Shown one piece after another: positions 4,816 to 59,690 of a DNA stretch of 64,000 nt. Origin of the DNA: Narcine bancroftii. Lineage: Eukaryota. The position numbers were made by a program, and so were the translations under genes. The stretch spans positions 175,646,001 through 175,710,000 of the forward strand of contig NC_091472.1 of NCBI RefSeq assembly GCF_036971445.1, written 5' to 3'. The notes beneath the pieces were generated by a model. It searched no databases. It saw nothing but the letters and a program-made list of their open reading frames with translations, and had not been told where the DNA came from. The stretch's first letter is position 1; the number at the start of each line of letters is the position of its first letter.

Positions 4816-5128
4816 TGTTTCCTTGTATGCTTGTGTAAAGATTTATTGGAGTAGGCCTCAGTCATTCTTTGGAATGTATATGTTTTGATCATCTTCATGG
4901 AAGCACCCCTTTGTGTAGTCAATAAATCCTTCAAACCTGTATAATCTAATGAAAATTATGTTTAACTTCATTAATTTATTCTGACCAGTACAACAGATAA
5001 GGACAACAGCTTAGACTTTTTATTCTCTCTCTTTTAAACACTTAATACTTAGTTTTTAGTGGAAGCATGAGCAGATCCCAAAGCCCAAACATGAATTTGT
5101 TGTCAATTAGTGATTGAATACTAGGATA

Positions 5129-5283
5129 CCCAACCCCAACCAACCAATTTTCCCCTGCAACCGTTGCAACCGTGTCTGCCTGTCCCGTATCGGACTTGTC
5201 AGCCACAATCGAGCCTGCAGCTGACGTGGACGTTTACCCCCTCCATAAATCTTCGTCCGCGAAGCCAAGCCAAAGAAAGAAAG
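5129..5283 (+). mobile_element. RTE-clade LINE 3' terminal fragment
   Basis: Near-identical to the 3' end of 47716-49229; (aaag)n tail; 9-bp TSD actaggata at 5120-5128 and 5284-5292. Confidence 0.93.
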
Positions 5284-5309
5284 ACTAGGATATCACAGGA
5301 ACTTGCATA

Positions 5310-6184
5310 TACGGTTAAATACCTTTATCCAAATTCCCGAAATTCAAAATGATATAAAAGACAACACTTTTCTAATCCTTGGTCCCATAAGGTAATAGAG
5401 TTCAGATATCTGATCAGAGAGCGGGAGATAGCAGATGTAATAGTGCATTATTGAGTGTAGATTTTTCAATATACCATATATACTCCTGTAATTGTTGATA
5501 CGGTGCAATAGTTAACCACCCTTTTTATGGCCTAAAAAAGGGTGTTTTTTGTATGGCCTGTGTAAAAGTCAACCCCACTATTTTTGGCCTCACTGCCCAC
5601 CCATCTGAACTCCTGACTGCAGATCTTTGTCCTGACACCCACCCATCCAAACTCCTGACCGTGGATCCACCCCCCCCACCCATCCAAACTCCCAACCATT
5701 GATCCTCACCCCGCTGCCCACCCATCCAAACACCCAACCACGGAACCTTGCTCCCACTGCCCACCCATCCAAACTCCCAATCGCAGATCCTTGCCCTGCT
5801 GCCCACTCATCAGAACTCCCGACAGCAGATCATCCCCCCCCCCACCCATCTGAACTCTCGACTGTGGATCCTCACCCTGGTGCCCACCCATCCAAACTCC
5901 TGTCCGCGGTTCTTCGCCCCTCCCCACCCTTCCAAACTCCTGACTCCTCGCCCCTCACTGCCCACCCATCTGAAATCCCAACCACAGATCCTCGCCCCCT
6001 TGCCTGTCCATCGAACTCCCAACTGCAGATCCTTACCCCAGTGCTCACCCATCCGAATTCAATTCAGTTAACTTGTGCATATTTAAATATTTGTATTGTA
6101 ATGTGAATTCAGGTAATTTTAAGTCTGAGTGAATCCGCAGCACTTCTGGTCCCAGGCGTTTCAGATAAGAGGTATTCAACCTGG
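5310..6184. mobile_element. Tigger/pogo-type non-autonomous DNA element (possibly composite) containing a minisatellite
   Basis: Left end tacggttaaatacctttatc is an imperfect inverted match to right end gataagaggtattcaacctg; a second pogo-like end (accatatatactcctgtaa) lies near 5472. Confidence 0.5.
5590..6058. repeat. C-rich minisatellite, unit about 36-39 bp, about 12 copies
   Basis: Recurring ctgcccacccatc(c/t)(a/g)aactcc(c/t)gac...gcagatcct; produces repetitive ORFs on both strands. Confidence 0.9.
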
Positions 6185-6287
6185 ATAGCCAGTGGAAATA
6201 AGAAGTCAATTCATTCAGCACATCAATAATCTCAAGCTCTTGCATGCAATGGGTTAAAAGTGACTGATTTCTCAGTGCATTACATGT

Positions 6288-7341
6288 GTTCTTTGGCTTG
6301 GCTTCGCGGACGAAGATTTATGGAGGGGGTAAAAAGTCCACGTCAGCTGCAGGCTCGTTTGTGGCTGACCAGTCCGATGCGGGACAGGCAGACACGATTG
6401 CAGCGGTTGCAAGGGAAAATTGGTTGGTTGGGGTTGGGTGTTGGGTTTTTCCTCCTTTGCCTTTTGTCAGTGAGGTGGGCTCTGCGGTCTTCTTCAAAGG
6501 AGGCTGCTGCCCGCCAAACTGTGAGGCGCCAAGATGCACGGTTTGAGGCGTTATCAGCCCACTGGCGGTGGTCAATGTGGCAGGCACCAAGAGATTTCTT
6601 TAGGCAGTCCTTGTACCTTTTCTTTGGTGCACCTCTGTCACGGTGGCCAGTGGAGAGCTCGCCATATAATACGATCTTGGGAAGGCGATGGTCCTCCATT
6701 CTGGAGACGTGACCCATCCAGCGCAGCTGGATCTTCAGCAGCGTGGACTCGATGCTGTCGACCTCTGCCATCTCGAGTACCTCGACGTTAGGGGATGAGC
6801 TCTCTGAACCCTTCTCCATTAACAATGGCGTGAAGCAAGGCTGTGTTCTCGCACCAACCCTCTTTTCAATCTTCTTCAGCATGATGCTGAACCAAGCCAT
6901 GAAAGACCCCAACAATGAAGACGCTGTTTACATCCGGTACCGCACGGATGGCAGTCTCTTCAATCTGAGGCGCCTGCAAGCTCACACCAAGACACAAGAG
7001 AAACTTGTCCGTGAACTACTCTTTGCAGATGATGCCGCTTTAGTTGCCCATTCAGAGCCAGCTCTTCAGCGCTTGACGTCCTGCTTTGCGGAAACTGCCA
7101 AAATGTTTGGCCTGGAAGTCAGCCTGAAGAAAACTGAGGTCCTCCATCAGCCAGCTCCCCACCATGACTACCAGCCCCCCCACATCTCCATCGGGCACAC
7201 AAAACTCAAAACGGTCAACCAGTTTACCTATCTCGGCTGCACCATTTCATCAGATGCAAGGATCGACAATGAGATAGACAACAGACTCGCCAAGGCAAAT
7301 AGCGCCTTTGGAAGACTACACAAAAGAGTCTGGAAAAACAA
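6288..7341 (-). mobile_element. RTE-clade LINE copy with 5' inversion
   Basis: 6289-~6790 is the RTE 3' end on minus (LRWMGHVSRM...RIGLVSHKRACS); ~6793-7341 is the upstream RT part on plus (GVKQGCVLAP, LLFADD); 11-bp TSD gcattacatgt at 6277-6287 and 7342-7352. Confidence 0.93.
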
Positions 7342-7459
7342 GCATTACATGTAAAAGCCCCATATTGACATGTAACAATAGAGAGACAAAGATGTAAGAT
7401 ACTAATTAGTGCGCTCTTAGTTAGGCAACATCAGTAAGATGAATATGATAGAATATTTT

Positions 7460-9650: not shown

Positions 9651-10498
9651 AGCCACTTTCAGGTGCAATTGCTCTGAGAATGTGCCTGCAGAAACGGCTG
9701 CGGGTGTATTCGAATGGACATTCAGGTGGCAGCGCTGAAGGCGCTGTTCTGGCACCTGAAAGGGCCGGCTGCAGGAGAGGAGCATCGGAGCGAGTGCCAG
9801 CTCCTGTCGACTGTGGCCGTAGTCCCGCCCGCTGACAGGGCTGGGGTAGCCAGCGCGGGACATCAGGGCAGGGGCAGCTGGCATGGGATATCAGGGCAGG
9901 GGTGGCCGGTGGGGGATGCCAGGGTTGAGGTGGTCGGTGTGGGACTTGGGGCAGGGGCAGCCAGCACAGAACTTCGGGGCAGGGAGCTATCAGGAATGGA
10001 GAGGGGGGCTGTCAGGGCACGGAAAGGGGGGCTGTCAGGCAGTGGGGAGGGGTCTATCAGAAGTGGGAAGGGGGGCTGTCAGGCATGGGGATGGGGTCTG
10101 TCAGGGTGTGGGGGGCTGTCAGGGCATGGGGAGGAGGGGTTGTCGGGTGTGGGGAAGGGGCTGTCGGGCGTGGGGAGTGGGGCTTCTAGGCAGTGGGGGG
10201 GGGCTATCAGGCCGCGGGGAGGAGGGGCTGTCAGGCATGGAGGGGCTGTCTGGCGTGGGGAGTGGGGCTGTTAGGCAACAGGGGGGCTATCAGGGCACAG
10301 GGAGGGGGATATCAGGTGCGGGGAGTTGGGTTGCTGGCTGATTGACATCAGCCCGCCCCCTAGCAGCCACTTTTAGACTGCAGCTTTCAGGTGCCCCGAG
10401 GAAGGTTGGGTACTCCTCAGGCCAGGTTTTGTGCTTTCAGGTGGCCTCCTGACAGCTGCATTCGGGTAGAATATACGGCTTTACATCGGGAAGCGACT
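9651..10498. mobile_element. PIF/Harbinger-type MITE inserted in L1 ORF2
   Basis: TTA TSD at 9648-9650 and 10499-10501; imperfect TIRs agccactttcaggtg / catcgggaagcgact; removing it restores L1 reading EDGMTK|IVNVRYRLVHYNFLH. Confidence 0.75.
9985..10330. repeat. G-rich minisatellite, unit about 19-20 bp
   Basis: Repeats of ggggctgtcaggcatgggga(g), about 17 degenerate copies. Confidence 0.9.
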
Positions 10499-19108: not shown

Positions 19109-19339
19109 TGTGATAGTACAGATTCTATCACCAATGTGTATATGTACAGATGGTAGTGTAGGATGACTGTGATTGGCTGAGAGCATAGCCACACCTACTG
19201 GCAGGTCTTAAAGGATTGCTCCTCGCCAGACCAGGTCATTCTGGACTGGTCGACCTACTTGTGATATGCTCCAGTCTATTAGTTAATAAAAGCCTTGGTT
19301 TGGATCAACAAGTCTTTGGTTCTTTCGACGTGCTCTTCA
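19109..19339 (+). mobile_element. Solo LTR, 231 bp, related to the LTR at 58430-58669
   Basis: TG...CA ends, AATAAA near 19285, 5-bp TSD gaagc at 19104-19108 and 19340-19344; shares gatagtacag...tatcaccaatg and aataaaagccttgg...caacaagtctttg with the 58430 copy. Confidence 0.9.
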
Positions 19340-22620: not shown

Positions 22621-23623
22621 GATGAAAGGGACAGAAGAATCAAAAGGATAATGGTGGGAAGCTGAGAAAAAAATTAGCTGCAGCAAAATAAAGGAGGGGA
22701 GGCTGGGGCAGTTGAGAACAGCCATAGACAATGCGCTAAGCGGTTTCTTTTGGGATGGCATTACAGTGGTCCAAACTGCTTCACAAAGAGTGAAACATTT
22801 CATTTGTGGTGTAGTCACTATTGTGGCTTAGTTTTAGTTTTGAGATGCACCACGGTAATGGGCCCTTCTAGCCCGTGCTGGCCAATTATACCCATATAAC
22901 TCAAGGAAGAAGTACAGCAGCGATTTTTGTAGCAAGGTCCCGCAGCTAGTGGTGTTGGTGTGGAAGTAAATGATTGGTCAGGCCACTTGCAAGAAATCTT
23001 CTTCACAATCAAGATGGACGTTTACCTAAAAGGGCAGGTGTGAAGGTCTTCATTTTAGATTTCGGCTATAAAACAGCATATCCCCTGGTGTTGTACCTAC
23101 ATTTTACAATGTGATTGAAGGGAGGAAAATGGAGACCTCAATAGATGCTTTGATCCGATCAGGTTGGATATGGAATTGCAATGTTTCGTACTCCATCATG
23201 GACACCATATCCCTCATTTTATAACCCAATATAGAAAACTGCTTTAAAAAAAACCTTTTTTTAAAACAAACTAATACAGTAGAGAGATAGCTAAAGAAGG
23301 CAAGCAATGGAACAGCTTGAGACAGAGCTTTTAGCATGGGGTGGATTTTGCTCATTCATTTGTCCCATCTGTGCAACATTTATTGAGCAATGCCAGAAGT
23401 TCATATAGTAACAGTTCAGCAGCAAGACCATTGGATTGAATTGCTTGTTTTTGTTTTCAGAATCGATTGCATTTTTTAAAATTCCTTGCTCTAAACTTAG
23501 CCAGAGGCTGGAGGGTTAACTTGCCAATGTATTGTTCAGCAGAGCCTTTGATTCCGCCCACTGAGCCCTCATTTCCCTCCATCATCCATTACTGAAGAGA
23601 GAACACTGTTTTATGGAGTCTTC

Positions 23624-23859
23624 GGCGGGCAGCAACCTCCTTTGAAGAAGACCGCAGAGCCCACCTCACTGACAAAAGGCAAAGGAGGAAAAACCCAACA
23701 CCCAACCCCAAACAACCAATTTTCCCCTGCAACCGCTGCAACCATGTCTGCCTGTCCCGCATCGGACTTGTCAGCCACAAACGAGCCTGCAGCTGACGTG
23801 GACATTTACCCCCTCCATAAATCTTCGTCCGCGAAGCCAAGCCAAAGAGAAGAAGAAGA
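23624..23859 (+). mobile_element. RTE-clade LINE 3' fragment
   Basis: Near-identical to 49015-49229; (gaa)n tail. Confidence 0.92.
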
Positions 23860-24254
23860 GAAAATAATGAAATTAAATCAAATAATCCATCCAAATAGGT
23901 TTGTGAGAAGGAGAATATTTATATTTATGTTTGGAATCCACTCCATGGATTTGAGAAGGAGAATATTGCAGGGTAGAGGCAGGTGATATTTACACAACTT
24001 GCCTTGAACTTGGATCAAGATGAACTTTAAGGTTTTGACTTGTGTGGTCAAGCTGAATAGATGTCTGCCGAGGAGCAAGGAGACAGAAAGAAGAGCGAAG
24101 CAGTTTCAATCTGTCCAGCAATGAAAAGCACTTTCTCTTGTCCTGCATATTGATGACTGACCAGGTAGACAGGCTTTCAGCATGTACAATGAGGTGTAAT
24201 GGTGAAAAGTCAATGGTGTGCACGGAAACTTGATGGGCTGCTCAGTTTACCCAT

Positions 24255-26638: not shown

Positions 26639-26850
26639 CATTAATAATTTAAAATGACCAATATTCTAAATTTTAAAATTACTCAACAATGTAAAACAAA
26701 TAATCATGCTGTCGACTTCCTCTCATATATTTTGACCCAAGTTGCATTAATAATTTAAAATGACCAATATTCTAAATTTTAAAATTACTCAACAATGTAA
26801 AACAAATAATCATGCTGTCGACTTCCTCTCATATATTTTGACCCAAGTTG
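26639..26850. repeat. Perfect 106-bp tandem duplication
   Basis: 26639-26744 is identical to 26745-26850; 3-bp cat microhomology at the junctions. Confidence 0.97.
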
Positions 26851-30625: not shown

Positions 30626-33600
30626 TGTAACATGGTGGAGAGTACTCGCAGACTTGTGTGGAGCAGAAACACGCTTTTATTAGCTTACAACTAATGGCCA
30701 GTATCTACAGTAGTCTTCAGGTAAATCGGAGATAAGGCGGAAAAATAAAGTTTATATCAGGACTGATGGGGGTGGAGCCAAGAGGAGGGGTCGGCCATCT
30801 AACCTATACATAGACAGTGAATTCCAGTTCACTGCATTCACCCCTTCCTTCAGAAAATAACCTGCAGGCAAAAACAGAGACCACGTACAGCAATAAAAAT
30901 TTTTACAATTATTTACAAGTTGAGTCTGTCAGAGAATCTGGTTATTCTGGTCAAGCGCTTTAGTACTGGTGGACTTTACTCTTCCAGAACCTCCTGTGGT
31001 TCTTGGATAGTGGGACTCAAAGGGAGACTCGGGGGTCCCGGATCTGATGGTGGCTCCGTTGGAAGAATGTCGTCCAGAACCCTGTGTGGGGTATTTGGAG
31101 GTTCCAGGCCTATTGTGGGTGTCAGGACCTCAGTTCCTGAAGGTGCCAGATCTCTGATCGAGATGGTGTCCTCTCTGCAGTCTGGGTATGCCACATAGGC
31201 GGACATCAGGTTTGTGTGCAGTAGGTGCACTCTCTCGACCAGTGGGTTCGTTTTGCTTCTCCTCACGTGCTTTTTCAACAGGACTGGACCTGGTGACATT
31301 ACCCATGCTGGAAGAGTGATCCCCGCCGCAGATTTCCTCAGGAATGCAAACATTAGTTTGTGATGAGTTGCATTGATCACAGTGCAGGGAAGCAATCTTA
31401 TGGAGTAGAACGTGGTGGGGAGAACCTCTTGCCACTGTGAGTCTGGAAGGCCTTTAGACCAGAGGACCAATTTTACAGCCTTCCAAACCATTGTGTTCTC
31501 CTTTTCAACTTGTCCATTCCACCGGGGGGTGTAGGTAGTCCTCCTACTGGAGGTGATGCCTCTTGCGAGCAGGTACTGGTATAGCTCTTCGCTCATAAAA
31601 AATGAGCCCCGGTTGCTATGAATATAGCTGGGATATCTGAACATGGTTGAAATGGAATGCTCTGATGACTGTGGTGGTGGTGGTGTCTGGGCAGGAGATG
31701 GGGAAAAGAAAATGCAAGTACTCATCGATAACGTTAAGAAAGGATACATTTCAGTTGGTGGACGGAAGGGGCCCTTTGAAATCAAGGCTGAGTCATTCGA
31801 AAGGGCGGGAAGATTTTATTAGGTGCGCTTTGTAGTAGAAGCACGGTTTGCCCTCAGCGCAGACCTGGCATGACCCAGTCATCTCCCTGATGTCTTCAAT
31901 AGAGAAGGGCAGGTTGTGTGCCTTGATGAAGTGAGCCATGTAGGTGATGCCCGGGTTGCAGAGCTCTTTGTGAATTGACCACAACTAGCTGGTGTCTGCA
32001 GCAGCACATCTTCCTTGGGATAGGGCATCTGGAGGCTCATTGAGTGGACCTGGTCTGTACACTCTCTCATAGTTATAGGTGGAGAGTTTGATCCTTCACC
32101 TCACAATCTTGTCATTCTTAATTTTACCACTATTCATATTATTGGACATGAATGCTACAGATCACTGATCAGTGAGCAGAGTGAATTTTCTGCTGACCAG
32201 GTCCAGTCTCTGATGGCTCCCCCAATGGTTTGAGCCTCCTTCTCCATAGACAGGTTCCAGAGCTCATGGCCTTGCAGGGTGTGGCAAAAGAAAGCTACCA
32301 GTCTGCTCGGAGCCAGAGCTATGTCGGAGCCATCGCTCTCCACCTAGAATGGTACATTTTTGTCCACTGCATGCATGGTGACCTTAGCAATTTAGCTCCT
32401 GATGTAGCTAAAAGCCACCTGGACTTCAGCTGATAATGGGAAGGAGATGGAATTTAAGAGGGGGCAGACCTTGTCAGTGTAATGAGGTGCCCACTGGGTG
32501 AATTATGAGAAGAAGTCCAGGCACCTCCTTGGTGCTTTCATGGTCCTTAGGATAGGGAGGTCTAAGAGGGAGCACATACACTCGGGGTCTCAGTCAATGA
32601 TGCCTTTGTCCACCGCTTAACCCAGGATAACTGGATGTTTGATCCTGAACATGCACATACTGACATTGTACATGAGGTTCAGGGATTTGGCTGTGTGGAG
32701 AAACTTCTGGAGGTTGCCGTCGTGGTCCTCCAGGTAATGTCTGCAAATGGTGATGTTGTCGAGGTAGGGTAAGGTAGCCCTTATTTACCTACCATTTTGT
32801 CCATCTGCCTCTGGAAGACTGAGACCCCGTTTGTAATACTGAAAGGGACCCTCAGGAACTGATAAAGCTGTCCATCTGCCTCGAATGCTGAATAGGGATG
32901 GTCCTCGGAGTGGATTGGTAACTGGTGATGTGCAGCTTTTAGGTCGATGGTCGAATAAACCTGGTACTGCGCAATTTAATTAACCATGTCCAAGATTCAG
33001 GGGAGGGGGTATGCATCCAGGAGTGTGAAGCGATTAATAGTTTGGCTATAGTCAATCACTAGCCTTGGCTTTTCTCCCCCCCTCATGACCACCACCTGGG
33101 TTCTCCACAGACTGTGGCTGGGTTCAATGATTTTTTTTTTTCCTTAAGCAGCCTCTAATAAATTCTCAGTCCCCTGCACTACATCACCTACTCTTTGTGG
33201 CTATTGGCTTACAGTCAGGGGTTAGGTTCTGAAACAAAGTGGGGGGGGGGGGGGGGGTCGATATTCATTGTGGAGAGACTGCATGTAGTGTCTGGGTTTT
33301 GGGATCTTCCGTTCTGCACCGTGATTGGGGGAAGTGGGCCTGAGTACTTCATGGTCACGCTTTTAAGGTGTCACAGGAAGTCTAGGCCCAGCAACACAGA
33401 ACCATACAAACCTTTCAATACATACAGTCGGAACATGCAAAACTCCCCCTATTTACAGTTAAGTGCACAGTACAATACCCCTGAATAGTCGACAAATACA
33501 TTTGCGATGCTAGATAGATACGGTAGTCTGTGGGATAAACCTTTAATTTGTACCACCGAGCAGTCATAGAGTTTATAAAGCTCTCTGTCGAGCCAGTGTC

Positions 33601-34955
33601 TATTAAACAATTCATCAGATGTCCGTTTACCCTCACCTCCATTGTTGAGTTGCTCAGCTGGCGGGGTTTCGCTTGGTCAACGATGACTGATGCCAGCGTT
33701 CTGGAGGCTGCATCACTCCCCCTGCCATCGTTGTCTTGATACGAAGGCCAGAAAGTTTCCATCCACTACAAGGAGTGGCAAGATTGCAACCATCCCACAG
33801 TTGCTTCTCTTCAGGTAGCCCGTTCCCACCGTTGCATCTCTTCCGGTAGCAGTTCTCATCACGAGACACAGCAAGATGGCGGCAGTGGCGAGCAGCATGG
33901 AGAGGTGAGGGTCCGCACCTCTGGGCTTGGACATGGGGTGTACAACTGTTCAAGGGTCATGCATGCGGTAGCCTTCCTGGGGTTCCCTTTGCCTGACAGA
34001 CTTTCGCCCAGTGTCCCCTCTTTCTGCATCTTGAACACACAGAGTCTCTCAAGGCATCTGGGGTGGAGGTGTTTGGCCTGTCCACAGAAGTAGTACTCTT
34101 GGTTGTGTGTGGCCAGTGTAATCTGTATCTGGGACAGCAGTGCTCCATGGGCCTGGCTTTCTGAGAAGGTGCCGCTTTCGTTAACGAGGTTGTCTGGTCC
34201 CAGTTGGGCCTATTCGAGGGATTTTGCCAGATCGGGGGTACTGGGAAGGTCCTTCTTCCCCAACTCTAGCAGTCGCTGCCTCATGTACCTCAAACTCACT
34301 CCAGCCACAAGTGTATCCCGCACTTGCTCTTCTTCCCTCACTCGGGCTGAGACTGCTCTGTCATGACACTTTCTCATCAGCATCCACAGTTCCAGGATAT
34401 AGTCATCCAGCAATTCACCTGGTTGTTGCCTACATTGTGAGAGTCAGTGTCTCGACAGCACATCGCTCTGGGGCCATGTGTAGTGGGCCTTCAGGCCTTT
34501 GGCCATCTTGTACGTCACACAGTGCCTGATTACCGTGTATCCCTTGGGGCCAACTCGAGAGAGGAGGGCCAATCTCCAGAGGCTATTGGAGTGGAAGACT
34601 TCTTGGCTGGCTGCTATGTAGGACTGGAAACACTCCATCCAGTAGGCGAATTATTTTGGGGCCTCTGGGAACAGAGGGTCAACCTCGAGCAGGCCTGGCT
34701 TCAATAGGCCTTCCATCCCATCTTTGAAAGTAAGCTAATAAAATTTTAACGTGATGGTTAGTACTTGGAGGCTTGTGTGGAGCAGAAACACACTTTTATT
34801 AGCTTACAATTAACAGCCGGTATCTACAATAGTCTTCAGGTAAATTGGAGGTAAGGCAGGAAAACCAGGTTTATATTGGGACTGACAGGGGCGGAGCCAA
34901 GAAGAGGGGTCGGCTGTCTAATCTATACATAGACAGTGAGTTCCAGTTCACTGCA
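30626..34955 (-). mobile_element. Full-length decayed Ty3/Gypsy LTR retrotransposon with self-complementary (non-tRNA) PBS
   Basis: 211-bp LTRs 30626-30836 and 34745-34955 (about 85% identical by hand count); perfect TSD tcctg; PPT aggaaggggtgaa at 30837-30849; gag CCHC (CSRCRKRGHWAKVC), protease LIDTGS, RT YLDN, RNase H, integrase (NGQVEKEN) in Gypsy order. Confidence 0.95.
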
Positions 34956-34994
34956 TCCTGCAAATCATTTTTTCGTATGTCTAACAACTCCTCC

Positions 34995-37272: not shown

Positions 37273-38047
37273 GAGTAAAGCAAAGGTCTGCAGACAGCAT
37301 GATGGAATGAAAACACACAATGCTGGAGAAACTCAGCAGGTCAGACTGTGTAGCAAAGATAAAGATACACAACCATCATTTTGGGCTTGAGCCCTTCATC
37401 AAGGAATGAGCAAAATCTAGGCAGTCGCCCAAACAAAATGGTGGGGGTGTGGAGGGGGTGGAGCATAGTCCAACAGATGGGAGGTAATAGGTGGATAAGG
37501 GAGGCAGGGCACACCAGCAAATGGGGAGGGGGAAGGCTCTGAATGGAGAGGGAGGGGGTGGAGAGCTGGCAGAAAGACAGAGGGATGGGGACTGACATGT
37601 CTGATCATGGCCTCATGTACAGTCAAACCCAGATCACCCATAAATTGGAGGAACAACACCTAATATTCTGTCTGGGCACTCGCCGACCAAATGCCATTAA
37701 CATTGACTTCTCTGGTTTCTACTAGCCTCCTCACCATTCTACCTCTCTTCCCCATCCCTCCATCTTCTTTCTTCCAGCTCTCCTCCCCTTCCCTCTCCAT
37801 TCACAGAGCCATCCGCCCTCCCCTTGTTTTCTGCTGTGCCATCCCTCCATTATCCACCTATTGCCTCCTCCCTATTGGACTGTGCTCCTCCCCCTCCCCC
37901 CCACAATTTTGTTTGGGCTACTGCCTACAATTTTCTCATAGATTGATGAAGTGCACAAGCCTGAAATGTTGGTTATGTATCTTCATCTTTGTTCTAAAAA
38001 GTACACCGTTTGACCTGCTGAGTTTTGCCAGCATTGCGTGTTTTCAC
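37273..38047. mobile_element. Penelope-like element: inverted pLTR (minus, about 37273-37590) joined to a plus-strand 3' end
   Basis: EEQHLIFCLGTRRPNAINIDFS PLE C-terminus; mirrored pLTR sequences; flanking direct repeat taag(t/c)aagagatgt at 37259-37272 and 38048-38061. Confidence 0.8.
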
Positions 38048-53152: not shown

Positions 53153-56100
53153 CTGATAATGAGCCCCTTTGCTTTTTCAGAAATCAAAATGAATGGCAGA
53201 TAAATGGAGGTTTAGGAAATGTAAATGAGATTGAAACGTTCTAAGGAATCAAAGCAGATGATATTCCCTCTGAAAAATGCAACAAATGGTGAGCTTTTTC
53301 TTTATAAAAGGTTTATAAATTTACAGAGAAATTCCCAACCATTAAATGAATATCTCGTGTGGTTTATAAATGAAAGAAGACGAATCTCAGTTTTCTTAAT
53401 GGAATGATCTGACCTGTAGTTTAAACCTATTTTAGAATAAAATTCGTGATCTCATCTTGGAAACCGTTCAGAGTAGCATATTTGAAATTACCATATGGTT
53501 TGATTTGCATTCCATGAACTGCTTTAATATTTAAAATGAGAATTAATTGTATTTCTCTTGATTTCCTTCAGTCCGTCAACAAGAATATGCATCATTTATT
53601 CTGTGTGCATGTTTGGACCATTGGCATATTGAGAGCTTTCGTGTAACTGAAGAGAATGAGAAGCAAATCCCCTGATAATGGTGCTGAAATCATTCATTGC
53701 CCATTGTATTTGACAGATAAAACATAATAAGTAAATTTGAGGATACGAGTCAACGCTCTTGGATGGATGAAATCCTTTAGAAAGGTATGGGAGGATTGGG
53801 ATATTAGAGTTCACAAAGTGATAACCAACCACAAATGTGACCAACATAGTCTCACATGAAGTTGACCTGGCCACTGAATTTGGGCATGGCTTCCTCGAAA
53901 ACCAACATACATTAACTTATGAGCAGAAGTAAGAGACAACTGAGGGTCTAACCATGAGCACCAACAAGGCACAAAGTACAAGCAATAGACAGAACTGAAC
54001 TGTATCCTATTAAACTAAATGGAGTTGATCTTCCCACTTTCAGCATGAAACCTGCACACAAAATTGGAAATATATTGTTACGACCAGCTTGCTCCCACTC
54101 ACAACCTCCCAAGCAGAGGACAACCCCAGGACTGATTGACAGGCCCCTGCATAGCACCATAAGTAGCCAGCTTTGCCCCAGAGTGTTATTGGCAGCTGAT
54201 GTAGCACTCTTCCTCCCAGGCTCATTGGCTCTCAAACCAGTAGTCCACCATTTACATGGACAAGGACATGATCGTGTTTGTTTTCCCTATCTATCATTTA
54301 AACATTTTGAGCAAAAATGCCTGGTATGTAATGTTTGTTATTGCATTAACAAGATAACTACCAAGAGTAATGTTAAGCAAACTGTTTACTTTGTACAAAC
54401 AGGAGAGGGAGCTTCTTACATGGTGTAAATCCTGTTTTTTTTAACCGCTGTCCCTTCATGGAGCTCGCAGGTGTACAGAGTACTGTTGCAAGTACGGCAG
54501 TGCTGATGGCAGTGGCTGTCTACGTTCCCTTTCTTGAGCAACCCTGCCACATACTGTGATTCAAGCTAATGTTCTACATTACATTCAAGTCACCAAGCAG
54601 CCAACCCAATTCAGTCTCTATACTTGAGTTGGGTTTACAGCTATGCCCAAAGCGTGTCCTGTAGTAGCTCTCTGTGGATGTGGAGGCTTGGGGTGCCTCA
54701 GTCTGGGAGTATTGTCCATGAGCTGTTTTGCACTTCTTACAGCTCTCTCAGCCAACCCATTTGACTGTGGATATTTTGGGCTGCTGGATATCTGGGTTAA
54801 GTCCCACACTGCTCAAAGTCTCTGAATCTTTCATTGATGAATTGTCTGGCATGGTATGATAGCAGAGAGTGAGGTGCCCCATGAATTGAAAAGTGTCTTC
54901 TTAGCTTGGTTACGACCGTTGAGGAGGTAGCATCGCATAACAGGTTTATTTCAAACTATCCCGAGTACAAATCGATTGGTACCAAGTATTGCTGACTTTG
55001 CCATTGGAAAATGTCCATTGCCACGTTGACCAGGGTAGGTCTGGGACCTTCTGCTGGTGTGGTTTGGTACTGTTGCACACTGAGTAAGCTTGCACTTAAT
55101 CAATGTTTTCAGACATTCCATTATGTCTCTCTCCTTTTGTTTTGTTGCCTTTGCACCCAGATGCCCTCTGTGAAGAATGCCAATGTATATATTTTGCAGT
55201 GAACTCAGGATTACCGCTTTCTGGCCTTTCGTTACAATTCCTTCATCGATAAGTAGCTTGTCATGGAGTGGGAAGTAGGTTTACACTTCTGGGGGAAGGC
55301 TGCACTGCTTGTCTGGACAACCACCCCTGATAAAAGTACCTAGGGTCCTTAAAGAGGCGCCTTCAGCAGTGTGTCTTCTTAGTTCCTCCAACCGGGACGA
55401 GGAATGCACATGACCGTCATTTCATCAACCTGTTGGGCCGTGCATTTTCTGGGGACACGGGATAACGTGCTGGCTAGGTGCATCTCTGTTCCACACTTCT
55501 ATGCCAAAGTGATGTTGTACTTCTGAAGTCTGAGCATCATTCTTTGCAATCTCGTTGGTGATGCGTGTATCAGCTTCATCAATATCGTGACCAGGGTAGG
55601 TGGTTGATCTACCATAGACATAGTCGTTGAACTTGAAACAGGCAAAAACTATTGCCAATAACTCCTTTTCGATCTGCACATACCTGGTTTCCATGTGACT
55701 AAGTGACCTGTCTTGCGGTCATGCTGCACCTAAGGCCATACTGTGATGCACCACAGGTCAGCAGCACTGGTCTTTGTACGTCGTAGAGCCACAAAACTGG
55801 TGGGCATAACATGTGCCTCTTTAAAGCATCGAATGCGTTCTGTTGCTTCTCGTGCCATATCCACACCACATCTTTGTGTCAGCTTTTAGGTGGAGCTATG
55901 AGTTCGCTTGAGTTTGGGATGAACTTGCCAGGGTAGTTAACCATACCAAGGAATCTTTGTAGGGCTGTCACGTCCGCCGGCTCCGGCATCTTGCTGATTG
56001 CCATGGTTTTTGAGGGGTCTGCCTTCAGACCTCTGCTAGTAAATGCATGGCCTACGTAGCTGACCTGACTCAGTCGGAATTTGCAAGTCCGGGGGTTGAG

Positions 56101-57534
56101 CCTAAGATTCACTTTCCTGGCTCAGTCAAGTATCTTCTTTAAACTTGCTTTGTGTTCCTCTAAATTCTTACCACCCACGACTATATCATCGACTATGCTG
56201 GCACAGGGGTACCTGGCAAAAATTTGCTCCATGGATCTCTGGAATACCTTGCTGGGCGAATTGATTCCAAATGGCATCTGCAGACCAAACCCAGTGCTGA
56301 ATGTTGTCAATAGTGATGATTTGTAGTCAAGCTTGATCTGCCATGTTCAGAACCGAGAACACAGTTGCGCCGGCATTTGCACGGTCACTTCCTCCGTGGT
56401 GCACATCAGTTGGTGCAGTCTCTTCAGGGCTGTATTGAGGTCTCGTAGGTTTGTACATGTCTTTCTTTTCGGCATCCACCATGGAGGACACCCATTCAGT
56501 CAGCTTGGAGACCGCAGTAATCACACCAGCTCGGCCTTGACCTTGTCTTTCATTGCCATTGGTTCACAGTGCGCCGGACCAACCATGGGTCTCACTTCTG
56601 GGTCAAGCCGCATGGAGTACATTACTGGCAACTTCCTCATCTTGTCTGTGAAAAGATTGCTGTATTTTGAAAAATTTCTCTGGGACAAATCATCTTCGGA
56701 GGGGCTTATGTGATCCACTTCTCTGCTAAACAGGACAAGTCTCATGTCCATGCATGTGCTCTGGCCCAACAGAGGCATGACATCTTCATGGACTATGAAT
56801 AACATTAGTACGTGTAACTGTCCCTGTATGTAGACCACAGCCGCACCGTACCATTGGTTCTGATCCTGCTGCCTCCATACGCCACTAGACTCATTGACCT
56901 GATGCATGGCTTGCTCTGTTCCATTTACCTTAGCTAACTGAATGTTTTCTGTGACATGATGTTGCACTTTGCTCCTGTGTCGACCTTCATTTCTGCTATC
57001 TTGCCATTGACTTTCATAGTCATGAAGGTTTTGTTGCTTCCTCTGATTTACATTTCCGCTGAGTTCCCTGTGCCATCCACAGAGTCAGACCGTCGACATG
57101 TTACTCATCATCTGAGTTGCTTCCCCCTTACTCCGGCTCCAGCTGGTTGATCATCCTCCTTGATCTGGGTCTAGCATTGGTTTGCTGCCTGACTCTGCAC
57201 CATCTGCTGAAATGGTTCCATTTTCTGCAGGTTCTACACTACTGGCTGAACACTGGGCACATTTATTGTCTTTCCACGTGGTGGCTTCTGCAGTTGCTGC
57301 ACTCTTCCCTCGACGAGGATGTGGCATGGGCTGGCTGGCTTTTCCTCCTGACCTCCAGCCATTGTCTGTTCGCAGGTCCCACCTTGACTGCATCAATGCC
57401 TCTGGTATGTGGCTGTGGAGGGGCTAGCTCCCTGCTATTCTCCTCTGTGGTTTCTTAAGCCAAATAGGTAGAGATGGCCTTTGCTAGTGTTAAGTCGAGG
57501 TTGTGCAGAAGTGCCTTCCTCATACTATTGTCAC

Positions 57535-57783
57535 TGTAATGCAATCAATAACCACAAGCAGTCTTGAAGTGAGTGATTAAAGGCTTTAATAACCTGAAAC
57601 GTCAGGCATGTCTTTTCAGGCTGCTGGCCTGGATCCAATGCTGGTATTGAGGGAGGAATCTAGGGCTATCAGCCTTTATTGGGAATCTTCTGGAGAGGAG
57701 TTAGAGAGGAGTTACAGGGTCAGCAGTAGGCCAGCCTGAACAGTGAGGTGAGGTCACCTCCTGACCTACCTTGTTCCACCACA
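57535..57783. mobile_element. Solo LTR, 249 bp, inserted in gag
   Basis: TG...CA; TSD gtcac/gtcat; removing it restores ICGIHD|NSMRKALL. Confidence 0.8.
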
Positions 57784-58315
57784 GTCATGAATGCCACAGA
57801 TCATCCTACCTTTAATGAATTCTTCACAGAGCATTCCAAAGTTAGAGGTCTTTGTCCTGATTTTCTAATTGCTCATGTACGTTAATTGATTCACCGGACT
57901 TTTGGTCTATAGTGTTAAATGTGTGTCTTTCCTTTATGTTTCTCTGTGGGTTGCACATTTCCCTGAAATTTTTGTTTTAAATACTTGGGGTCCTCCTTCA
58001 ACTCAGCCAGACTGGTAGCGAGTTCCTCTTTATGCACTTCGTTTGCATACACGAATGACCTCTCCCTTTCAATGGCTTGCAGCCCTCCAAATTCAATAGA
58101 ATATACACTATGGTGCGGGTAGGCTCGTCACTGTGTGCTGCTGCAATAAGTATGTCCTACTCTTGTTCAAAAATATGCCAGTTCTCTGCTACATTGCCCT
58201 TGAACACAAGTGGGTCGGGCCATCTAAATCCATCCGCCATTATGGTGACTGCTGCAACGTGGTGTTGGTTACTCACCTTTGGTTGGTTGGAAGGCCTCAG
58301 GCTTGGATGCTCGTG

Positions 58316-58333
58316 ATCCCACTTCTGACACCA
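58316..58333 (-). promoter_or_regulatory. Primer-binding site complementary to the tRNA-Leu 3' end
   Basis: TGGTGTCAGAAGTGGGAT directly after the 5' LTR; complement of ...ATCCCACTTCTGACACCA. Confidence 0.85.
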
Positions 58334-58429
58334 TGTTTGTTATTGAGTGCTGAATAACAAGACGACTACTGAGAGTAACGTTAAGCAAACCATTTATTTT
58401 GTACACACAGGAGAGGGACCTTCTTACAT

Positions 58430-58862
58430 TATGATAGTACAGATCTATCACCAATGTATATAGTGTATATAGTTACAGTATCTAGACTGTGCTTACAGCG
58501 ATTGGCTGAGAGCTTAGCCACGCCTACTGTCTGGGCCTTAAAGGGTTGTGTCCCTAGCCAGGTCGGATCATTCCGGACTGGTCGGCCACCTATGAAGAGC
58601 TCCTGTCTTTTGCTAATAAAAGCCTTGGATTGGATCAACAAGTCTTTGATTCTTTCGACGAGCTCTACAATTTTATTAGCAAAAAGACAGGAGCTCTTCA
58701 CAGGTGGCCGACCAGTCCGGAATGATCCGACCTGGCTAGGGACACAACCCTTTAAGGCCCAGACAGTAGGCTAAGCTCTCAGCCAATCGCTGTAAGCACA
58801 GTCTAGATACTGTAACTATATACATTGGTGATAGATCTGTACTATCGCATTCACCCCTTCCT
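58430..58862. mobile_element. Fold-back LTR insertion: full LTR + inverted U3/R + PPT
   Basis: LTR 58430-58669; 58671-58849 is the reverse complement of 58430-58621; 58850-58862 is identical to the PPT at 30837-30849. Confidence 0.9.
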
Positions 58863-59690
58863 GGAGAACAAAGCCTGTTTTTTCTTTTCACCGCCGCACC
58901 TTTGTGGAGTTTGCACATGCCCAGAGCATACGGTAACTGCAACGCAATTGCAACGGGTGCAGAGCAGCAGATGGCAATGGCTGTCTACATGCAAGAAACT
59001 CTGCCAATTCACATCACAAAATATGATGAATAACTTTGGAATTCAATGACTTTTTTTTTAAAATGCAGCCAACTTTTAACTCCCAGTGAAATGAGAGGCT
59101 CGTGGTAGTGCAAAGCAGAAGGTAATCTCTTTGATTTTTTTTCAGTTTAATTGGGGAAGTTGCTGATTCAAAATACTGAACAGTTGTGAATAAAGATGGT
59201 TGTTCCAAAAGATATTACGGAAGAGTTAAACTGCACCATTTTATTTCAGTGAAGTGTGCAAATGCCAAAGTGCTTGCTTTGGATGCTTTTTAATTGCAAT
59301 TAAATGCCATTGTGATTATTCTGAATCTGCTTAGCATATTAGTAAATCAAAAATCAACCTTACATGGTTTCTCCCTGTTTCAATTATTCTGAACTCTAAT
59401 CAAGGGGCTGCAGGAGGTGAGATAGCAGGTGACATACTTGAGATTTCGCTTCTGAGTTGCAGGGAACAATTTAAACATAGTTTGGCTTAACCTTTTGATG
59501 CTTTGCTTTCAATTGCACAGAATGATGATGTGTGCACATTCATCAAGAGCATGGTCATGGGTAATTACTAGGAAGATGACTCCTTGACTGTCTGAGACCA
59601 GCTGGTAAATATGGGGGAGCAAAGCATTGCTCCACGTACAATCATATACTGTTGTGAAGCCATGCTTCTCAGGAAAAGAAGTCATTAGAC

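Follow-up and report, generated by a model that had tools for sequence, protein, structure and literature searches.

LTR palindromes recurring in the Narcine bancroftii genome: probable copies of a retained self-primer of a Gypsy element without detectable chromodomain

The window analysed here, a stretch of 64,000 nt of the Narcine bancroftii genome (contig NC_091472.1, positions 175,646,001 to 175,710,000), carries an LTR hairpin which belongs to a recurrent group of LTR palindromes. These palindromes derive from a Gypsy element lacking a recognizable chromodomain and were quite probably made when reverse transcriptase copied a self-primer that had not been removed. This primer, about 51 nt long, is predicted to be cleaved off the element RNA at its 5′ end. 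The hairpin class is real and recurrent and, as judged from sequence, probably represents an undescribed variant of self-primed reverse transcription.

The initial annotation had proposed a fold-back at this locus, and it was found as described: the LTR (58430–58669) is followed by a single A and then by LTR nt 192 to 1 as reverse complement (58671–58849). The structure has a folding z-score of −35.7 and none of 100 shuffles was equally stable (0/100). The LTR boundaries agree with those of 30 genomic copies, many of them solo LTRs with 5-bp duplications, but the solo LTR at 19109–19339 that had been cited in their favour belongs to a sister family and not to the parent. Similarly, the stem exists but is imperfect, the right arm lacking 9 and 5 bases, with one additional base in a T run and 3 mismatches. 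The PPT tail is also present, but extends over 20 nt (58850–58869) instead of the proposed 13, and 19 of these 20 bases correspond to the 3′ UTR and PPT of the parent family. The Gypsy at 30837 does contain the 13-mer (2 matches compared to 0.12 expected), but is again a member of a sister family rather than the parent.

No target duplication surrounds the window copy, as had been observed before; the idea that its absence fits an aberrant product was not borne out, 23 of the 27 palindromes described below having a duplication with at most one mismatch. Compared with other copies of the host Gypsy, whose PBS we take to resemble the tRNA-Leu type, the hairpin replaces about 17 bases of the host LTR. 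Short-read contigs, which probably come from the sample that was assembled, span the tail-to-host junction without differences. The left junction is unbridged: it is reached by 27 LTR-side bases only, in a contig which shows 3 differences and continues into other sequence. The window copy is likely a molecule in which a PPT primer had stayed attached and its copy escaped trimming, and whose DNA would have been captured at a break without integrase, with loss of host bases. For Tf1, the available text of PMC11042837 describes that the cDNA often retains single-stranded copies of PBS and PPT and that these promote integrase-independent insertion.

Table 1. Features of the window hairpin and of related elements in the window (nt, position in the LTR)
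Feature	Position	Strand	Comment
Complete 240-bp LTR, left arm	58430..58669	+	putative U3 58430-58569
TATA-like TTAAAG	58538..58543	+	LTR nt 109-114, 32 nt upstream of the predicted start; putative function
Initiator-like TCATTCC	58568..58574	+	LTR nt 139-145; predicted transcription start 58570 (LTR nt 141)
Predicted self-primer, ~51 nt	58570..58620	+	LTR nt 141-191; PBS pairing and AATAAA in the final 13-15 nt (58606-58620)
Loop, remainder of R plus U5	58621..58669	+	template for minus-strand strong-stop DNA; predicted cut directly before 58621 (+/-1)
AT dinucleotide, LTR end to PBS	58670..58671	+	as in normal elements
PBS running on as complement of the entire predicted primer	58672..58723	-	LTR nt 191 to 141
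Inverted U3, with 9- and 5-base deletions compared to the left arm	58724..58849	-	LTR nt 140 to 1
20-nt complement of the parent-family PPT and 7 bases upstream	58850..58869	-	only in the window copy among 27 palindromes
Decayed unrelated host Gypsy (approximate limits)	54330..59000	-	hairpin lies within its 5′ LTR
Sister-clade Gypsy	30627..34956	-	PBS and LTR segment show covariation with their counterparts in the hairpin family
Solo LTR, second sister family	19109..19339	+	same product kinds genome-wide

Other repeats were noticed in the window. These are a MITE-like long inverted repeat element of ~740 bp at 37308–38046 (pairs I9, I13, I21 and I23), a perfect 106-bp tandem duplication at 26639–26850, two GC-rich minisatellites with a period of ~42–45 bp (5584–6045 and 9976–10286) and LINE copies, presumably RTE-like, at 5128–7354, 23621–23865, 40248–41205 and 47585–49230, which are 92–96% identical and of which some have inverted 3′ pieces nearby.

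The junction at which the LTR end runs into an inverted LTR is recurrent, with 134 exact matches in the genome. LTR-PBS junctions of the family amount to 1554 genome-wide, and a control pattern gave 0, the search patterns being slightly different. We parsed 95 loci covering 101 of the 134 junction matches and could assign all but 8 to one of four classes. Every class passes from sense R through AT to antisense U5, in other words through the junction of the RNA primer with minus-strand DNA. Class I (27 loci) consists of U3-to-U3 palindromes of the window type, 20 of them flanked by exact 5-bp duplications, 3 by duplications with one mismatch and 1 by a duplication offset by one base, while 3 have none, including the window copy. 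In class II (24 loci), a 3′ LTR with a truncated internal part adjoins a sense piece of the LTR, which is followed by AT and an inverted U3; exact 5-bp duplications were found in 19 of 20 loci checked. A simple inversion of the loop between inverted repeats was excluded as an explanation of class II, the PBS and the 5′ internal region being missing. In class III (19 loci), the LTR and AT are followed by a short inverted arm and a jump, mostly into internal sequence (exact 5-bp duplications in 5 of 7 checked). Class IV (17 loci) comprises loci that resemble solo LTRs but have a 25-nt piece of inverted U5 after the primer sequence (L104, L118–L120, L132, L140, L142, L150, L155–L157, L164, L166, L168, L170, L175 and L176). 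Exact 5-bp duplications surround 13 of these 17. Because none of them (0/17) adjoins internal sequence, class IV suggests direct integration of short DNA instead of LTR-LTR recombination.

Some loci deserve separate description. L091, L092, L161 and L162 (C11:145.9–147.3 Mb) represent one class II product with a 332-bp tandem unit, locally duplicated. L103 and L163 have one junction in common, where LTR and primer copy adjoin an inverted 5′ LTR plus the first 277 internal bases. At L084, L088 and L093, U3 fragments (nt 3 to ~70, or 1–140) are fused directly to other or internal sequence; the limit at 140 coincides with the putative U3/R border.

Exact 5-bp target duplications at unique sites, in 20 of the 27 palindromes, make insertion by integrase likely, and most U3-U3 products would thus have entered the genome as integrase substrates. 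The same duplications bear on the alternative that the class is an assembly artefact or arose when, at the DNA level, the template was switched at the 14-bp inverted repeat present in an integrated 5′ LTR. Every 5′ LTR contains this inverted repeat, the window copy has no duplication and has lost host bases, and the assembly evidence comes from contigs, not long reads. A chromosomal fold-back would however enter the inverted flank, whereas 20 of 27 palindromes stop at LTR nt 1 between exact 5-bp repeats, and the arms carry several substitutions and indels, unlike fold-backs of reads or assemblies. For the class, template switching is largely refuted by the duplications, and this alternative as a whole is very improbable. 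It is just as hard to believe that the palindromes form a single MITE-like family spread from one master copy, even with terminal inverted repeats of ~190 bp and 5-bp duplications: left arms differ from other left arms by 12.3 substitutions and from foreign right arms by 12.8. Within 24 palindromes, the two arms of one insertion differ by a mean of 6.5 substitutions compared to 12–13 between insertions. Since the arms mirror subfamily alleles inside insertions, the palindromes formed repeatedly, from at least three subfamilies. Arms of two subfamilies were joined in 2 of the 24 (L028 and L160).

In full-length members of the family, ATTTTATTAGCAAAA lies behind the 5′ LTR and a purine tract ahead of the 3′ LTR, as seen in genomic copies and as the initial annotation had anticipated. 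The PBS lacks a TGG start and is complementary to nt 177–191 of its own LTR, a segment spanning AATAAA. This pairing covaries, with different sequences on both sides across relatives, including both sister families of the window. We also searched metagenome contigs, where 80 related loci yielded 20 direct-repeat pairs, 12 of which had usable 5′ LTR ends and were tested; the other 8 were set aside because they were truncated, were duplicates or did not represent the LTR of the element. PBS-LTR pairing outdid at least 195 of 200 coarse shuffles in 11 of the 12 metagenome relatives and in both window families tested. In the metagenome relatives, it lies mostly over a TAAA-type motif, 33–55 nt upstream of the LTR end.

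Pairing of the PBS with its own LTR and the recurrent junction support the earlier proposal that the hairpin arose as a by-product when a self-priming element was reverse-transcribed, and plus-strand DNA over-running an unremoved primer, also proposed, accounts for the junction. In the scheme we favour, the RNA would start at nt ~141, fold and undergo cleavage behind nt ~191; the enzyme would presumably be RNase H, which also makes the cut in Tf1. Minus-strand strong-stop DNA would then end at nt 192, and the 51-nt primer, still in place, would be copied into the plus strand as far as the cap. The resulting plus-strand strong-stop DNA would contain U3-R-U5, AT and a copy of the whole primer, with a 3′ end complementary to its own R over ~52 bases. 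Due to this complementarity, the palindrome could form by fold-back or by head-to-head annealing: the 3′ end of the primer copy would anneal to R of the same or of a second strong-stop molecule and be extended over U3. The second strand may be made via re-priming at the copied PPT or reciprocal extension of two molecules. A cut after nt 191 would also leave two bases, AT, past the LTR end, just as there is AA at the PPT side.

Breakpoints were analysed at independent loci, two junction-sharing pairs each being counted once. The sense piece of class II starts at nt 192–193, immediately behind the primer sequence, in 7 of 21 loci (p ~4e-10 against a uniform and crude null), and at nt 135–143, the predicted cap site, in 0 of 21. 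Run-on arms of class III stop at nt 135–143 in 8 of 17 loci (p ~1e-6, again against a crude uniform null); microhomology is present at class III ends, which scatter over 135–150 and 164–171, and a TCCGGA palindrome at nt 143–148 alone could stall the polymerase. An extra untemplated base at the predicted cap site was looked for and was absent. The initiator consensus TCAKTY is cited in the available part of PMC3601003. Together with the initiator motif, the run-on ends indirectly place the start ~37 nt upstream of the paired stretch. The breakpoints suggest a 5′-end primer of nt ~141–191, cut as in Tf1 and about five times longer. A cut after nt 191 fits the class II starts at 192–193; class II of the 19109–19339 sister family shows no sharp peak, its starts being spread over 166–219, with several at 176–182, one at 129 and one at 51.

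The initial annotation had instead assigned the priming to the RNA 3′ end, where R, with U3 and PPT upstream, would anneal to the PBS and prime, the plus strand then crossing U3 and entering the PPT. R contains the primer sequence, which is therefore present at both RNA ends, and this route also draws support from the PPT-side tail of the window copy, from the sister-family product L322, which starts at the initiator, from the chimeric nature of 2 of 24 palindromes and from L093, whose run-on passes U3, PPT and 1.2 kb of internal sequence and fits a 5′-end as well as a 3′-end primer. As 3′-end priming keeps the 5′ R intact, minus-strand strong-stop ends would be expected at the cap site, where none of the class II breakpoints was found; it also gives no reason for class III arms stopping at nt 135–143. 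The tail, which had been its key evidence, is confined to a single one of the 27 palindromes. An RNA 3′-end primer is thus distinctly improbable as the source of these products, although such priming may be a minor route. Somewhat less improbable, but still unlikely, is a short primer as in Tf1, with only the 13–15 nt PBS copy, as the 3′ terminus of plus-strand strong-stop DNA, mis-annealing to R and being extended, and the ends near nt 141 reflecting polymerase stalls. It predicts the same palindrome, the cut at nt 192 and the duplications; Tf1 itself is a precedent (available text of PMC7175516), and a small hairpin lies at nt 143–153. With a short primer, the RNA would have to start at nt ~177, ten bases upstream of AATAAA, whereas the initiator and TATA-like motifs indicate nt 141. 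Moreover, classes II and IV need a sense R-antisense U5 template followed by a jump to U3, for which a 52-base homology is easier than one of 14, and of 17 arms, just 2 pass below nt 135 and still stop before the LTR start. The long primer from the RNA 5′ end is therefore preferred.

The parent is a Gypsy of ~4.9 kb at full length, with 240-bp LTRs and 5-bp duplications. Its single ORF of about 1460–1490 aa (1464–1492) has the order protease, RT, RNase H, integrase, a weak match to a zinc knuckle, and Ty3 as best PDB match. Direct TG...CA LTRs, a duplication within 4–6 bp and the PR-RT-RH-IN order place it in Ty3/Gypsy. A Chromo or SH3_Tf2-1 match was absent in two open parent ORFs at E 0.1. 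A DIRS-type structure was excluded by the DDE integrase, and a tyrosine recombinase match was absent. The nearest named proteins are from rays and sharks, followed by many invertebrates. In an integrase tree built with no named reference sequences, the parent clusters with elements of invertebrates and chondrichthyans, separate from five elements of this genome that bear SH3_Tf2-1 (99/98); these five are not established as sushi, and three more were omitted owing to short or missing matches. In the parts of PMC12471100 and PMC4558846 at hand, Saci2 and lennie elements have a tRNA PBS and mostly 4-bp duplications, unlike the parent; PBS data are absent from the portion of PMC6238403 available. 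Numerous family copies genome-wide retain frames above 1400 aa, which points to a recent expansion of the family.

Run-on products are also found in the sister families. The LTR type of 19109–19339 has 148 run-ons among 669 junctions, many within tandem arrays, and Family 2 just 1 in 110. Among 33 parsed loci of the 19109–19339 family, several are palindromes, with exact duplications in 3 of 6 checked. Seven loci have the structure LTR-[44-nt primer copy]-LTR, in 278-bp units with one common junction and no PPT. This junction has 43 matches at ~16 places, mostly in one 15-Mb stretch of C11, and exact duplications were observed at L337 and L338 and one with a single mismatch at L341. The 278-bp unit is possibly a new non-autonomous mini-element. 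The arrays (L335, L337–L342) lie at C1:468.3–473.6 Mb, C5:343.5 Mb, C9:30–32 and 294 Mb and C11:227–242 Mb and contain up to 11 or more junctions; their clustering on C11 is odd.

Tf1 primes with its first 11 bases after an RNase H cut (PMC7175516, PMC5341516, as far as their available text goes), and self-priming has been predicted from PBS-LTR complementarity for Tf1/sushi, the Tcn1 clade and TAR/Houba copia elements (PMC6317226, PMC4600332, in the parts at hand). The likeness to Tf1/Tf2 of Schizosaccharomyces pombe, on the material available for them, includes a PBS complementary to the own LTR, a cut behind the paired stretch (predicted here), a primer that is retained and copied, a PPT copy at the cDNA end and tailed ends inserting without integrase. 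The parent differs by a predicted primer of ~51 nt compared to the 11 bases of Tf1 and, from Tf1/sushi chromoviruses, Tcn1 and TAR/Houba as they are described in the accessible text, by the absence of a Chromo/SH3_Tf2-1 match. Integrated palindromes and related products are unmentioned in the available portions of PMC7175516, PMC5341516 and PMC11042837, and no such animal lineage is listed in the available portion of the plant survey PMC6317226. TRIMs, according to the parts of PMC6934838 and PMC4558846 at hand, have direct LTRs, PBS and PPT and propagate. The palindromes resemble TRIMs, as described there, in being short LTR-derived insertions with target duplications, but have inverted arms and two U3 ends and arise anew from full-length parents. 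MITEs and DIRS elements have terminal inverted repeats. The repeats of the palindromes differ from these in being the U3 of a Gypsy LTR, with a DDE integrase in the parent and no common master copy. In the literature searched, neither integrated palindromes nor a long self-primer were found to be described, subscription journals and Repbase reports lying outside its scope; earlier notes on self-priming in the clade may exist.

Taken together, these results allow a broader reading which is tentative and rather doubtful. A widespread non-chromovirus clade of animal Gypsy elements would self-prime with a long capped primer carrying the poly(A) signal, and this primer would be copied so often that its fossils make up between one tenth and one fifth of LTR-PBS junctions, allowing RNA start and cut site to be mapped with nothing but the genome. 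The integrase would accept palindromes with two U3 ends as well as solo-LTR look-alikes, and one sister-family product would by now be a PPT-less mini-retroelement multiplying in 278-bp tandem arrays.

Self-priming has experimental proof in a yeast element and is elsewhere predicted from complementarity. The genome studied here contains hundreds of integrated intermediates including the primer-DNA junction, with testable coordinates for RNA start and cut. If the proposed mechanism is true, long-primer self-priming would be present in a non-chromoviral animal lineage and the integrase would be able to insert DNA that has U3 at both ends. Direct reverse-transcription products would then include some apparent solo LTRs and some MITE-like palindromes, and estimates of element loss based on solo LTRs would be affected.
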